This document shows, in pieces, positions 1,085 through 62,484 of a stretch of 64,000 bases of DNA; the stretch's first letter is position 1; each line of letters starts with the position of its first letter. The translations under genes were made by a program, and so were the position numbers. Source of the stretch: Eledone cirrhosa (lineage: Eukaryota); contig OZ024740.1 of NCBI GenBank assembly GCA_964016885.1, positions 139,686,001 through 139,750,000 of the forward strand, in the 5' to 3' direction. The notes beneath the pieces are model-generated. The model ran no database searches. It worked only from the letters and a program-made list of their open reading frames with translations, and was not told the DNA's origin.

Positions 1085-1215
1085 GTAAAAGGTAAACAGG
1101 AATAACAACACAATCGGTTCAGTATATGGAAGGAATATATTAAGTTAGCGCTTGAAATAGCAGGAAGAGGGCCTTTACGTTTCGGACGCTAGTCCTTCAT
1201 CAGAAATTAGAAAGA
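1085..1215 (-). mobile_element. Family K short hammerhead element, copy 1
   Basis: Minus strand CUGAUGA A-GGAC(UAGC)GUCC GAAACGUA at about 1172-1206; homologous to 3075-3200 and 19060-19180; bounded by CA/TG repeats. Confidence 0.75.
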
Positions 1216-1280
1216 TTGAAGACACACACACACACACACACACACACACACACACACATATATATATATATATATATTAA

Positions 1281-1366
1281 ATGCTCTACGGTTCTTATAT
1301 ATTTGATATATATTTATCCTTATCGAGCCCTCTTTGGATTTAAGTCTTCAAATTTATTATTATTAC
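1281..1366 (+). mobile_element. Family B 3' end fragment between TA tracts
   Basis: Nearly identical to 45103-45187 and 16502-16598. Confidence 0.85.
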
Positions 1367-2800
1367 TATATATATATATATATATATATATATATATATA
1401 TATATATGTACGTATGTAGTGATATAGTTCTATTTAGATGTAGTGGGAGATGAGTTGGTCATGTTAGTAGGTACTGTGGTTCGTAGTTCACTTGTGGATT
1501 GCTTTATGGTGAGGTCATGTTATGTAGTGTGTAACTAAAAGAAGATAGATGTACCTGTGCGTGTATGACAAGAGGTTGTGGGAGTGCAAGTGAGTTACAG
1601 TGTTGCTTATAATGATGATGATGTGACGATTCCTTGGGTAAGTGATTTACTCTGATCACATAGGTAATGAAATAAAAACCAAATCGCTACTTAAATATAT
1701 TTATTAATTTAACAACCTGCTACGAAGCTATTGTTGACAATATATGAAAACATATTGTTGTATATGTGTGTGCAATAATGTGTGGACTGACTTTTGTTGA
1801 AGTACCAGTGGAAGAATTTATGGATAGCCCTTGTGGAGAGGGACAGAATATTTGACTAAGTGCTACATCTCCGTGCTTGCTGAAATAAACCGTTTTTGGT
1901 GTGTCTCCTTTGAGAGACGAGAGAAGAATGTATTGAAGAAATGTTATCTTAAATAAAGTTCAGTTGGCCATTTTCTCGGGTCTAACTGGCGACAGTTCGA
2001 AACAAAAAATAAATTGAACGTCTATGTGGTACAAGGTTGGCATGACCTACTTTGCCAACATCAGAACCAGAGTTAAAATTACTGATATAACTTTAGTAAT
2101 CCACAGAAGACAGCCGATGAGCGGGAATTGTCCTTGTATTAGTGTCTTCCGTGTTTTCACCCACGTTTTTTAAATAATATTTATTGGTAACCACATATCC
2201 TCATTTTTAATTCTACATTATATATAGATGTGTGTGTGTGTGTGTGTGTGTGTGTGTGTGTGTGTGTGTGTGTGTGTGTGTGTGTGTGTGTGTGTGTGTG
2301 TGTGTGTGTGTGTAATTATTATAATATGATGCTAACCGACCAAGGTTGTGCAAACCAAATTTTAGTTGGTCAGCTGTGATGCAGATAAACTGAAGGGCTC
2401 AACAACATGTACAAATAGTATAAGCCGGAACATTATAGAGTATTAAATAGAGCGAAGGCCATATGCAATTGTATTCAGGCTTATTTTCATCTCCATGATA
2501 CATATTTCTCTTGCAATATATGGACATTGCTTGATGTCGGAAAGGTGACATGTCCTCCCCGGTGTATGACGTCTTTGATAGATAGTAAACTAATATATTT
2601 AATGTATTACATTGTGGACATGGACATAACCACCGGGACCACGGAGCTGACTGGCCCATAAGTTTCCTTTATGGTGGAGGCGTGTGGAATATATTCATTT
2701 GCATTTTATATATATATATATGCAAATGAGATTAATCACCTCAGACGATAAAACTATATATTCTCGACTGTTTTCACGTCGAGCAGTCGCAACTGTGTGG

Positions 2801-2853
2801 GGGATCGTCCTGATGAGGACCAGTTAAATCCGAAATGCATCGATGATTGCCCC
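2801..2853 (+). ncRNA. Minimal type I hammerhead ribozyme
   Basis: GAUCGUC CUGAUGA GGA(CCAGUUAAA)UCC GAAAUGCAUC GAUGAUU: stem I pairs, palindromic stem III AUGCAU, AUC cleavage triplet. Confidence 0.8.
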
Positions 2854-3074
2854 CCTTGCTTCTGCTGGACACCGCCAGAGGGCGTTAGACCCGTTTTTTG
2901 TTTTGTTTTTGCATAGCTACGGCTTTCTAAATGTTTACCTGTAACGATACCGTGTTTCTTTAGAAATACACACACACACACACACACACACACACACACA
3001 CACATATATATATATATATATATATATATATATATACATGCATGCATATATATGTATGTGTGGTGTGTGTGCGT

Positions 3075-58654: not shown

Positions 58655-59475
58655 TCATAAAACATGTCTATAGAATCACCAGATAAAATATATACCATTT
58701 CTTCTCCCAATTAGCATAATTAACCATATAAAAAATCGATTAGACCAAGCTATAAGAATAAAGGCTTCTATGAAGAAATCTCCGACAAATAACCGAAAGC
58801 AGCCCTTCGCGTCGGTTGCGACGGAGTATTTATCGACTATTTCGGCAGCGTGTTTGAATCGCTCAGATATACAGTCAACTAAATAGAACTAGGTGTAAAA
58901 TAAACTAGGAGAAAAGTGAACATATTTAGTTACCTCTACCATGGTTTCGTCCGCATTTTAAGATATCCCATAGCATCGGACACGATTCTTAGCCATTTTT
59001 TAATGTATTCTTGGCGCGATCACTTTGGAAAATTTATTGTCTAAATTTGAGCTAACTTCCTGAAGAGTCCGGTGCTCTAGGTGTCCGAAGCTATCGGATA
59101 TCTTAAAATGCGGACGAAACCATGGTAGAGGTAACTAAATATGTTCACTTTTCTCCTAGTTTATTTTACACCTAATTCTATTTAATTGACTGTATATCTG
59201 GTCGATTCATACACGCTGTCGAAATAGTCGATAAATACTCCATCGCAACCGACGCGAAGGGCTGCTTTCGGTTATTTGTCGGAGATTTCTTCATAGAAGC
59301 CTTTATTCTTATAGCTTGGTCTAATCGATTTTTTATATGGTTAATTATGCTAATTGGGAGAGGAAATGGTATATATTTTATCTGGTGATTCTATAGACAT
59401 GTTTTATGATATATAGCTCTGCTTATTTAATTTATTAACTCTTCATTGAGCCACAAAGTGACCCGTTGCAAAACA
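58655..59475. mobile_element. Family D large foldback (about 330-bp arms)
   Basis: 58655-58983 is the reverse complement of 59081-59410; sense arm continues to 59475. Confidence 0.93.
59055..59132 (+). ncRNA. Type I hammerhead ribozyme
   Basis: ACUUC CUGAAGA GUCCG...CGGAC GAAACCAUGGUA GAGGU. Confidence 0.9.
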
Positions 59476-59664
59476 CACACACACACACACACACACACAC
59501 ACACATATATATATATATATATATATATATATATATATATATATATATATATATATATATATATATATATATATATATATATATATACATATATATATAT
59601 ATATATATATATGTGCAAACCTTTATAAATATATATATATATATATTTATATATATATAGAGAG

Positions 59665-60358
59665 AGAGAGAATTAGTATATTTACCAACATATGCGTACA
59701 GATGTACACTAATGCTAGCAAATACATAAGTTATGTCATAGTACCTAGGTGGTTCAATGCAGGAGGATGCAGAACATTTATATGAAAGACGTAAAATAAG
59801 AAAATTAAAAATTAAAAATTAACTTACTTACTAAAATTGTTCTGCATCCTCCTGCATTGAACCACCTAGGTACTATGACATAACTTATGTATTTGCTAGC
59901 ATTAGTGTACATCTGTACTCATATGTTGGTAAATATACTAATTCTCTATATTTATCTCCAAATTATTTATTTCTTGAGCAAACCTGTCAAATCCACTACT
60001 AATGCAATGTAGTGGTAGTAGGCTTTTATCATTATACCACCCCACTCCTTCCGACTAGCCTCAGTGTCACGTGATTGATTCTTTAGAATCTGCCGTTTGA
60101 CCAGAGACAGTGAACTTTTTCAGTGCTATGGAATTCAATCCACCGAATTATTATTATTTTTATATGAGTCCCTAGTGTTCGCGCATTGCCTGGAGACTTA
60201 GCTGAGAATAGACTCCCTGATGACGTAATGAATTCTCGATGGTTACATTGCGTAACTATCTTTATCCCATTACAGAAACTAATTAGTTGGAGTGAAAATT
60301 TTAGTAAGTAAGTTAATTTTTAATTTTTAAAATTTTCTTATTTTACGTCTTTCATATA
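59665..60358. mobile_element. Family G foldback with circularly permuted 523-nt monomer
   Basis: 59665-59776 is the reverse complement of 59838-59948; 59779-59837 is the reverse complement of 60299-60358, joined directly to the monomer start. Confidence 0.9.
60212..60293 (+). ncRNA. Type I hammerhead ribozyme
   Basis: ACUCC CUGAUGA C-GUAAUG...CAUUAC-A GAAACUAAUUAGUU GGAGU. Confidence 0.85.
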
Positions 60359-62286
60359 TATATATATATATATATATATATATATATATATATATATATA
60401 TATATATATATATATATATATATATATATAAGCAATCAATGTTTATCGTTGATTGACCAACGGTTAAAATACAGATATAAATATATATATATATATATAT
60501 ATATATATATATATATATATATATATGGGTGTGTGTCCCTGTGTTTACGTTTCGTCTGTTTATATCCTGTAACTTAGCTCTTCCACAAAAAGGGATCCAC
60601 TAACGAAGTACTAGAAGTACTATACTTGAAGAAATAAATGCTGGGTCGATATGATCGACTAAATCAGGCCGGCTGTTTAATGACTGAAACCAATAAAAGA
60701 TAAATGTTAGATAAACATACATTTAGTTAAACTACATAATTTTATCTGCAAGAGAACCTCAACTAGGTTTTGTCATATTATCAAGAATACCTGCGTTTTC
60801 CTGTTCGCCCTACAGAGAGATAACGGGGTTTAGATCTACTTATAAAGACTGAAATGAGGAAGTGACCGCTCTGAAATCACGTGGAAAAAGACGTATAAAT
60901 TGTACAACGTGGCCCTAGAAAGACCATGTCTGATTAAAAGCTTGTGTGTAGCAAAATCTGTCCACACCTTAACCCCTGGGTGACATTTAACGGTCAATTT
61001 CTGAGTTATCTATTTTCGGGCGTAAACAGGTCTAAGAGTGGACGACCTCTAAAGATCAGCCCTTTGTTCTCAAGGCTTGGGGTCAGAGAAAGCAACATAG
61101 ATAAATAGCCTGCCTTGGACCAGCATAGCAGCAGTTTGGCGTGGTTCTTGATAGAGTAAACATGTAAAACATTTGCTTTCTACAGACCTCTTGTGGTCTT
61201 ACTGACTCTTACTTTCTTTTACTCTCTCTTTCTCTCAATCTCTATCTTTTGATTTCTGTCTTAACCAAGACTGTGAAGTTCATGAAGTTTTCTTGGTAAA
61301 TATAATTTAATTCTACTTTTACAAACACAAACAAAGAAATAACATCCATAATTCTTGTGTATTTTTTGTATAGATCCGGTATGAGCTATTTTCAATAAAT
61401 TAATAATATAGCGGTTTGGTGTCATCGTGGTTCATTTATATATATTCATTTTCTGCGTGATCAAGGAACTATCATATCATCACTATTTTATTGAACACTT
61501 ACTCACTTACCTGAATACATGCAACCTCTGGTCACACTGTATCACACAACAGTGGCCACACGACACAACAAGCTACAAATAAGTACACACGCAACAAACG
61601 AATCAACACCACAACACAATCAATTACCAACGCGACCATCAAAAATCATCGCTATATATGTAATTGTCACAGTACAATACATTGTACATTATATTACAGT
61701 GCGAGACAACAGAGTACAGTTCATGCCATGAGAACTGATCACCTGATGGCGAAATAGGAACGCCGTTTTCATACATGTCGTGTTTTGTGCATTTTAAACA
61801 CGGCGGAGCCCATCCCACTCAAAGTCTGACTTTGACCGATTACTTCCAAGGTTACCAACAACACCATTACGAATTCCACTTCTACCATCACCACCAACAA
61901 CAACATTACCCCCACTATTACCATCACACACATACATTCCCTTCATAGCACCTCAATCCCCGCTACGACAGTATTACTATTAAGAAAACAAAAAACAAAA
62001 CAAAACAAAAACTACAGTCCCCTCACACAACTATCCCTCAACACGTCATATTATGTGTACTAAGTTACCAGCAATAACGATATCTTGGTTGATTTGAGTT
62101 TGATAATTCTGCACTAGAAGGAACAGTGACCTCAATATATGGGGAAACTACAAACAAACATGATAATCTGAATGAGATACTGAGATATGTAGTAAGGTTC
62201 ACTGGGCCATGATTACAGTGTTCGAAATAAATTTATAATAGATATAGTAAATATGTGTGTTTGTATATATATATATATATATATAT

Positions 62287-62484
62287 AACGAAGGAAATGT
62301 GGTAAGGAACCAGGTGGACCATAACGCACCAAAGTACTCAATACTTCGGGTAGTAGAGTGGGTAATAGGAACAAGTAAGACCCCGACGGCTGAGCTCAAG
62401 CCGTTTCGACGGCTAATTCTGTACAGTACAGAATTAGCCGTCGAAACGGCTTGAGCTCAGCCGTCGGGGTCTTACTTGTTCCTA
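62287..62484. mobile_element. Family A foldback (opposite orientation to the 10471 copy)
   Basis: 62366-62424 is the reverse complement of 62426-62484; centre CTGTAC-A-GTACAG; TA tracts on both sides. Confidence 0.92.

Follow-up and report, generated by a model that had tools for sequence, protein, structure and literature searches.

The 64,000-nucleotide window analysed here (C1:139,686,001-139,750,000 of the 3.0-Gb Eledone cirrhosa assembly) holds many small elements with type I hammerhead ribozyme motifs, most families of which lie in (TA)n microsatellites. We interpret it, with a probability of about 0.82, as the deposits of many lineages of Penelope-like elements (PLEs) inserting in (TA)n, comprising ends of autonomous elements, non-coding tandem units and short elements. 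Read from the sequence are the hammerhead folds with their covariation, open reading frames (ORFs) for the autonomous class, tandem units, partial tandems, inverted truncated arms and tails. The original prediction, made from the letters of the window, had taken all of these elements for non-autonomous retrozymes dependent on PLEs.

The hammerhead motifs are real, and their fold is no product of the descriptor. A strict and a relaxed type I descriptor were run on the window and on local dinucleotide shuffles of it. The strict descriptor gave 7 matches, against a mean of 0.15-0.23 in 60 shuffles at the lowest threshold and 0 at a score of >=25; the relaxed one gave 14 matches at a score of >=24 and 0 in 30 shuffles, so that motif density lies far above that of shuffled sequence, as had been predicted. 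When stem III was omitted from the descriptor in a third scan, it proved palindromic in 17 of the 21 matches, a hairpin in 3 and absent in 1, while ten shuffles yielded 3 matches, none with a paired stem III. For most families the core follows the type I order (CUGANGA / GAAA / UH) with stems I-III; departures are U3-A8 in families F3 and Hy2 and A at position 4 (A4) in Hy1 and F5. At Rfam gathering thresholds 0 hammerheads were found in the window (the RF00163 model has 45 positions), and an E-value scan of the window, dominated by microsatellite-driven miRNA matches, contained no hammerhead among the matches listed (150 of 240). Elsewhere in the genome RF00163 gave 18 matches among 74 scored candidates.

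Compensatory change was followed in families F9 and F10, using 25 of their 30 distinct motifs (five near-duplicate rows were excluded). In this set 95.6% of cells are paired and both sides have changed in 9 of 19 pairs, so the stems are kept by compensatory change. None of 500 shuffles reached this paired fraction, a test inflated by kinship of the rows; slid partners, which pair at 34-60%, are much lower.

Thirteen sites had been named in the original prediction, and a convincing hammerhead fold is present at 11 of them (2810+, 11829+, 12261-, 22352-, 23536-, 31501-, 40467+, 42644+, 56685-, 59060+ and 60217+). Three of these, 12261-, 31501- and 56685-, were identified by eye, the scanner having missed all of them. 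The other two sites fare worse: 18727+ is degraded, with the core and stems I and III present and a poor stem II, and 30117- is weak. For short constructs of 2810, 11829, 42644, 18727 and 30117 the lowest-energy fold is not a hammerhead, which would be expected of dimer-type motifs but is not counted as support. A candidate at 9692+ was dropped as a single copy with a broken stem II. Repeat families were grouped by masked self-BLAST, because plain repeat finding was dominated by microsatellites. Among 15 unit sequences compared, the sole real cross-match was 25 nt between two families, apart from two weak 29-30-nt matches. The families are thus largely dissimilar to one another, as claimed, except that the sites at 31423, 56615 and 59055 form one family group, so the 13 sites represent 11 families.

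Longer copies elsewhere in the genome identify three window families as 5′-truncated 3′ ends of autonomous PLEs: Hy1 and Hy2, of the Hydra clade, and family D. Their copies in the window, with a diverged relative, are as follows.

42144..42712, plus strand: Hy1 3′ end with inverted arm; hammerheads 42644+ and 42299-, core CAGAAGA (A at position 4)
44112..44452, minus strand: Hy1 truncated 3′ end; hammerhead 44181-
44944..45188, plus strand: Hy1 truncated 3′ end with tail; A4 core, stem I damaged
16028..16588, plus strand: Hy1 truncated 3′ end; core mutated
1270..1367, plus strand: Hy1 tail only
10469..10711, plus strand: Hy2 3′ end as a fold-back; 3′ half of the hammerhead only, longer copies having the full core UUGAGAA
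62282..62485, minus strand: Hy2 3′ end, fold-back
31698..31783, plus strand: Hy2 tail fragment
43297..43367, plus strand: Hy2 tail fragment
11743..12012, plus strand: diverged relative of the Hy2 pseudo-LTR; hammerhead 11829+, hairpin stem III
42963..43293, minus strand: family D (third autonomous PLE) 3′ end; minimal hammerhead core 43212-
17344..17568, minus strand: family D 3′ end and tail

Upstream of these ends, copies of Hy1 and Hy2 reach ORFs with reverse transcriptase (RT) and GIY-YIG domains, and family D leads to an RT ORF in L076; the predicted link to autonomous Penelope elements sharing the termini thus holds. The best Hy1 copies are 97-98% identical, and longer ones have the RT + GIY-YIG frame upstream, with an inverted truncated arm, typical of PLEs, in L179. 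Hy2 forms 3.5-kb units of pseudo-LTR, ORF and pseudo-LTR (L192, L193), with a 703-aa open frame in L193. The proteins of Hy1 and Hy2 are 50% identical, and each element has a single ORF with RT, C-terminal GIY-YIG and, by eye in comparison with PMC8557442, the motifs RWR (in place of RWK), DKT and CxCX5C. Both also have the tandem or inverted pseudo-LTR structure, a tail, (TA)n insertion and a 3′ hammerhead. A PDB sequence search was uninformative.

It is therefore next to impossible that every hammerhead element of the window belongs to a non-autonomous retrozyme family. That idea fits the absence of any tblastn match to three PLE proteins within the window itself and the five families of non-coding tandem units described below, but it is refuted for Hy1, Hy2 and family D by the upstream ORFs. 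The site at 42639 is in fact the 3′ end of autonomous Hy1, and that at 11824 is 74-77% similar over 61-131 nt to the Hy2 pseudo-LTR.

Neptune-type ORFs with minimal hammerheads of their own are abundant in the genome (150 of 10,597 GIY-YIG candidates were scored; the Pfam profile used was PF01541), but the 3′ ends sampled from them had no counterpart among the window families. The 3′ ends of several Neptune-type families (L138, L141, L128, L118, L122) bear minimal hammerheads of the U3-A8 or U-U kind, and L138 contains a 938-aa stop-free frame between two hammerhead-bearing pseudo-LTRs.

Families F3, F5, F6, F8 and F12, by contrast with the claim that all is autonomous debris, are recognisable from their sequences as non-coding head-to-tail units of about 500-700 nt, of retrozyme type, with one hammerhead per unit. 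In this respect the original prediction was right.

12102..12549, minus strand: F3; hammerhead 12261-, core UUGAUAA
22023..22655, minus strand: F5, partial tandems; hammerhead 22352-, core CAGAAGA, hairpin stem III
23201..23673, minus strand: F6; hammerhead 23536-
49293..49588, minus strand: F6 truncated copy; 3′ half of the hammerhead
58649..59472, plus strand: F8 with inverted arm and tail; hammerhead 59060+
56328..56889, minus strand: F8 copy; hammerhead 56685-, U-U at the stem II base, short stem I
31048..31660, minus strand: diverged F8 relative; hammerhead 31501-
59667..60358, plus strand: F12; hammerhead 60217+
53746..53854, plus strand: F12 truncated copy

The period is 595 nt in F3, whose copies are 99-100% identical, 565 nt in F6 and 534-540 nt in F12, which forms arrays of up to six; F8 units measure about 640-720 nt. 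Arrays of F3, F6, F8 and F12 carry a type I hammerhead in each unit, while F5, with a unit of about 500 nt, occurs mostly as partial tandems, a full unit following a partial one, with few two-hammerhead cases. In four array loci the stop-free frames reach at most 72-101 aa. Matches to F5 downstream of Neptune ORFs were considered as evidence of a partner and rejected, as they are separate insertions in the TA tract beyond the Neptune 3′ end.

The short elements (F9 and F10, about 250-300 nt), of which F9 has a fixed 5′ end, are by their sequences probably non-autonomous as well. Among the copies examined neither a tandem nor an ORF-linked one was seen for either family, and 24 F10-type rows compared by eye have no long common upstream sequence. 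F9 is about 265 nt long, and 8 of 8 fetched copies fold back at the same 5′ end, which suggests snap-back priming of complementary DNA (cDNA) at a fixed site. The F9 copies L195-L202 are 98-100% identical, and the fold-back is centred on the palindromic 5′ end of the element. These and the other hammerhead families of the window are listed below.

40249..40650, plus strand: F9 as a fold-back; hammerheads 40467+ and 40349-
42744..42950, plus strand: F9 copy; hammerhead 42850+
46346..46577, plus strand: F10, hammerhead architecture as in F9; hammerhead 46392+
2726..2965, plus strand: F1; hammerhead 2810+, one head-to-tail case (L082)
18610..18870, plus strand: F4 fold-back; degraded hammerhead 18727+
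29991..30160, minus strand: weak minimal hammerhead at 30117-
1079..1212, minus strand: F13, a minimal-hammerhead family, also at 3069-3292 and 18967-19165; not TA-associated
17101..17230, plus strand: degraded hammerhead 17164+, ends in (TA)n; no second copy in the fetched DNA

To place these families in the genome we used 39 stretches of 10 kb (390 kb), hand-placed at round coordinates, with small chromosomes over-represented. The sample contained 30 hammerhead matches, one per 13 kb, against 0.17 in shuffles, which bears out the predicted high copy number. Extrapolation gives about 230,000 motifs genome-wide (bootstrap 146,000-330,000), an estimate on the cautious side, since bulged stems escape the scanner. 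By scanner the window holds one motif per 4.6 kb, about 2.8 times the sample average; the density of one per 2.5-3 kb originally given is reached only with degraded copies counted. Pieces of autonomous elements account for 43 insertions and 4.4% of sampled bases, tandem-unit pieces for 7 (0.8%) and short-family pieces for 11 (0.7%); the share of the non-autonomous classes is a lower bound, because the tandem-unit and short-family references came from this window. Hy1 alone supplies 5 of the 30 sampled hammerheads, and 8 matched no reference family. Together the classified families make up about 6% of sampled DNA and are thus a sizeable part of the repeat content of the genome.

That no class is commoner in the sample than the autonomous ends would agree with a simpler account, in which all window elements are truncated pseudo-LTRs of autonomous PLEs and independent non-autonomous families do not exist. 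Solitary minimal hammerheads were ascribed to truncated PLEs by Cervera 2014 (PMC4209133), and F9, F10, F1, F4, F13 and 11829 have no settled class. Yet ORF-less head-to-tail arrays of the same period occur on several chromosomes, and what lies upstream of a unit in tandem copies is the 3′ end of another unit. This account is therefore refuted for the five tandem families unless the arrays are assembly artefacts, and we consider it very improbable.

Runs of at least 4 TA units occur 3.7 times per kb, and 6.6% of random positions touch one. In the genome sample TA was touched by 48 of 84 ends of autonomous pieces, 11 of 14 ends of tandem-unit pieces and 12 of 22 ends of short-family pieces, against 8 of 108 ends of a control short interspersed nuclear element (SINE), i.e. 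55-79% versus 7%. The TA context originally described therefore holds for most families, with F13 (5% of ends) as an exception. In all 8 families examined the 3′ end is fixed and includes 2-8 TA-like bases of the element's own, which are followed by more element sequence in tandems and by (TA)n in terminal copies; at one F8 end (CA)n follows instead. In several families there is a pair of such 3′ ends about 70-130 nt apart, in line with optional tails of that length and with the PLE tail that Frangieh et al. tied to two reverse-transcription start sites (PMC11167929). The sites compared here are filled ones, and they point to a probable PLE-type insertion into (TA)n.

Since the TA-like 3′-end bases pass directly into the tract, and TA runs are so common, the tracts could instead have been made or extended by slippage during insertion and not have been pre-existing targets. 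Both boundaries lie at TA in 27 of 50 Hy1, 20 of 39 Hy2 and 19 of 42 F5 insertions, however, and a preference for (TA)n has been published for Hydra elements (PMC8557442). Slippage as the origin of the tracts is, in our judgement, unlikely.

Under the interpretation of PLE deposits, multimeric or read-through transcripts would carry the hammerhead, and the PLE protein, through its GIY-YIG domain, would nick (TA)n. The nicked end could then anneal to the RNA at its short TA-like stretch and prime reverse transcription, with priming at one of two internal RNA sites producing the tail, and early termination and fold-back producing the truncated and inverted copies. Tandem-unit and short-element RNAs would borrow Hydra or Neptune proteins in trans. 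Cleavage may require dimers where stem III is palindromic and take place in monomers where it is a hairpin, and hammerhead cutting would release unit-length or circular RNA.

Several points weigh against this picture. The Hy1 and Hy2 ORFs gave no Pfam match, so that their assignment to the Hydra clade comes from the by-eye comparison of motifs. No sequence is common to the non-coding units and the 7 autonomous elements compared, which sample few of the genome's PLE families, and trans-mobilisation is for this reason argued from architecture alone. The remaining unclassified families have 3 of 26 ends at TA in the sample, with no group enrichment. For an anole PLE, hammerhead mutants left insertion in vitro unaffected, and the site where reverse transcription began had no homology to the target (PMC11167929). 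Finally, of nine Xenopus retrozyme dimers one was cleaved (bioRxiv 10.64898/2026.07.22.740005).

The last two systems also lend weight to the idea that the tandem units are satellites derived from PLE termini by DNA-level duplication, with hammerheads as passengers and RNA cleavage or circularisation irrelevant to their spread: 8 of the 9 tested dimers remained uncleaved, and cleavage was dispensable for insertion of the anole element. Local tandem amplification from PLE termini was proposed by Li et al. 2026 in the same preprint. Most copies, however, are dispersed insertions of 1-2 units, with the fixed 3′ ends, variable 5′ ends and inversions that mark reverse transcription, and the stems of the F9/F10 set covary. 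We regard a satellite origin as improbable and retain insertion by PLE machinery.

An unusual feature of the cores is A at position 4. It is found in 41 of 41 Hy1 motifs, which were located by their flanks, and for F5 in 35 of 36 distinct motifs (of 44 rows 37 span the core, and two of these are one locus). These copies are not independent events, because they were chosen by similarity to the window copy and derive from few masters. Both families have a hairpin stem III. Other departures have precedents: U3-A8 cores occur in F3, in Hy2 (5 of 7 matches) and in Neptune ends, and U3-A8 covariation, the U10.1-U11.1 mismatch and U4C are described among the natural variants of Perreault et al. 2011, whose text, where accessible, does not mention A4 (PMC3088659). 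In the literature covered no description of an A4 core was found; Lunse 2017, Arkhipova 2017, the Perreault 2011 figures and the supplementary material of the 2026 preprint fall outside this coverage, and any of them may show one. L138 (6135+, 5644-) and L082 have C at core position 4 together with a palindromic stem III.

The core is conserved at U4, and the change U4C reduces activity in vitro (PMC3088659); a founder mutation would be common to all copies of a young family, and the elements may not need an active hammerhead. The A4 hammerheads could accordingly be dead relics, founder-fixed in two master copies, and we give this an only slightly less than even chance. Set against it, A4 is present in two unrelated families, stays constant across F5 copies of 84-98% identity while N7 alternates between A and U, and is kept in the diverged copy L005 alongside a compensatory change in stem I; the minimum-free-energy fold of the F5 motif, moreover, is the three-way junction.

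The kind of element described here is known, while its scale and the A4 core look new. Hammerheads in PLE pseudo-LTRs (PMC4209133), animal retrozymes (PMC7229834) and a PLE origin of retrozymes (bioRxiv 10.64898/2026.07.22.740005) are already in print, and the suggestion that nothing of the sort had been described in cephalopods does not stand. Octopus bimaculoides has Hydra-1_Obim, a (TA)n-inserting, hammerhead-bearing element (Craig et al. 2021, PMC8557442). For the giant squid a count of 235 Hammerhead_1 loci was obtained by Rfam, a method different from ours (PMC6962438). A repeat annotation of O. vulgaris gives 31 recently active Penelope-like families and, in the portion available, lists no ribozymes (PMC13282606). 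Our literature search turned up no account of non-autonomous families with hammerheads in cephalopods, nor any of a hammerhead load of comparable scale; published counts, obtained by methods that differ from ours, reach up to 120,000 in axolotl, >6,000 in coral and about 5,000 in mussel (PMC7229834).

Hy1 and Hy2 resemble the Hydra-clade PLEs of PMC8557442 in the C-terminal GIY-YIG, RW[KR], DKT and CxCX5C motifs, in (TA)n insertion, in a hammerhead close to the 3′ end whose stem II often has U-U at its base, and in tandem or inverted copies and a tail. They are families separate from Hydra-1_Obim, and their hammerheads differ from the Obim motif listed there; the Hydra cores in table S2 of that paper all begin with CUGA, unlike CAGAAGA in Hy1 and UUGAGAA in Hy2. 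Hy2 is also set apart from Hydra-1_Obim by its 3.5-kb length and a 3′ untranslated region of about 1.2 kb. With the Neptune and minimal PLE hammerheads of Cervera & de la Pena 2014 (PMC4209133) the window motifs share the type I order, a palindromic stem III for dimer cleavage and the U3-A8 variant, and as in the genomes studied there many variable families coexist, mainly as solitary truncated copies. Unlike in those genomes, with thousands of motifs each, stem II here is often 30-100 nt, and the window families do not match the sampled Neptune 3′ ends.

The tandem units are like animal non-LTR retrozymes (PMC7229834; bioRxiv 10.64898/2026.07.22.740005) in being non-coding, in having one type I hammerhead each, in occurring as monomers, dimers and multimers, and in co-occurring with PLEs, for which an origin from PLEs and mobilisation by them have been proposed. 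Our 500-700-nt units compare with 150-450 nt in PMC7229834 and 51-972 nt in the preprint, and the invertebrates covered were a mussel in the former and four species, insects and a coral, in the latter. The present units differ in inserting into (TA)n with PLE-type inversions and tails, in the many concurrent families and in being known from DNA alone, and, unlike the retrozymes of Li et al. 2026, they have no pseudo-LTR homology to the 7 autonomous elements compared here. Non-autonomous Chlamys elements such as MRC1 (PMC8557442) are likewise PLE derivatives with pseudo-LTRs and head-to-tail multicopy insertion, but belong to green algae, mostly lack a canonical hammerhead and have a documented 3′ similarity to autonomous partners.

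A bolder reading, which we put forward as doubtful, would combine three things: one of the densest known hammerhead loads (some 10^5 motifs in many concurrent families), still-mobile non-autonomous units parasitising TA-targeting Hydra and Neptune elements by TA micro-homology priming, and a functional A4 hammerhead, present in an autonomous element as well as in a parasite unrelated to it and missed by CUGANGA descriptors. Activity of the A4 core would mean that a class of hammerheads has so far escaped searches. The role of the hammerhead in PLEs and the PLE-driven mobility of retrozymes are standing questions, and trans-mobilisation and the need for cleavage are directly testable here, because the 703-aa frame of Hy2 is near-intact, F3 units are near-identical and the target is simple and shared.

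The rest of the window holds further repeats. Four different PLE-type families have left a stack of five insertions in the roughly 1.2 kb at 42144-43367, with only TA tracts between them. The segment 46578-47030 is a high-copy repeat with partial tandems, inversions and TA flanks like those of PLE families, in which the scanner found no hammerhead; a query spanning 46325-47030, which gave 5,493 first-look candidates, was set aside because two elements are mixed in it. Fold-back inserts between microsatellites, with no hammerhead detected, lie at 15394-15772, 27553-27681, 37591-38551 and 45310-46135, and are possibly truncated ends of other PLE families. The SINE-like repeat that served as control (6930-7431, 39979-40163, 44480-44663 and others) is not TA-associated and has 57 insertions in the 390 kb.

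Pfam returned nothing for five window ORF fragments, including non-LTR, LINE-like and Helitron-like remnants. We take short ORF remnants at 39086-39430, 24021-24712 and 32419-32775 to resemble, respectively, an R2/NeSL-type element, a LINE (long interspersed nuclear element) reverse transcriptase and a Helitron helicase. The plus strand at 43496-43981, immediately following an (ATAC)n tract, encodes a C-terminal fragment of a non-LTR element with a restriction-like endonuclease (RHD and PD..E motifs), which is presumably R4/Dong-like.

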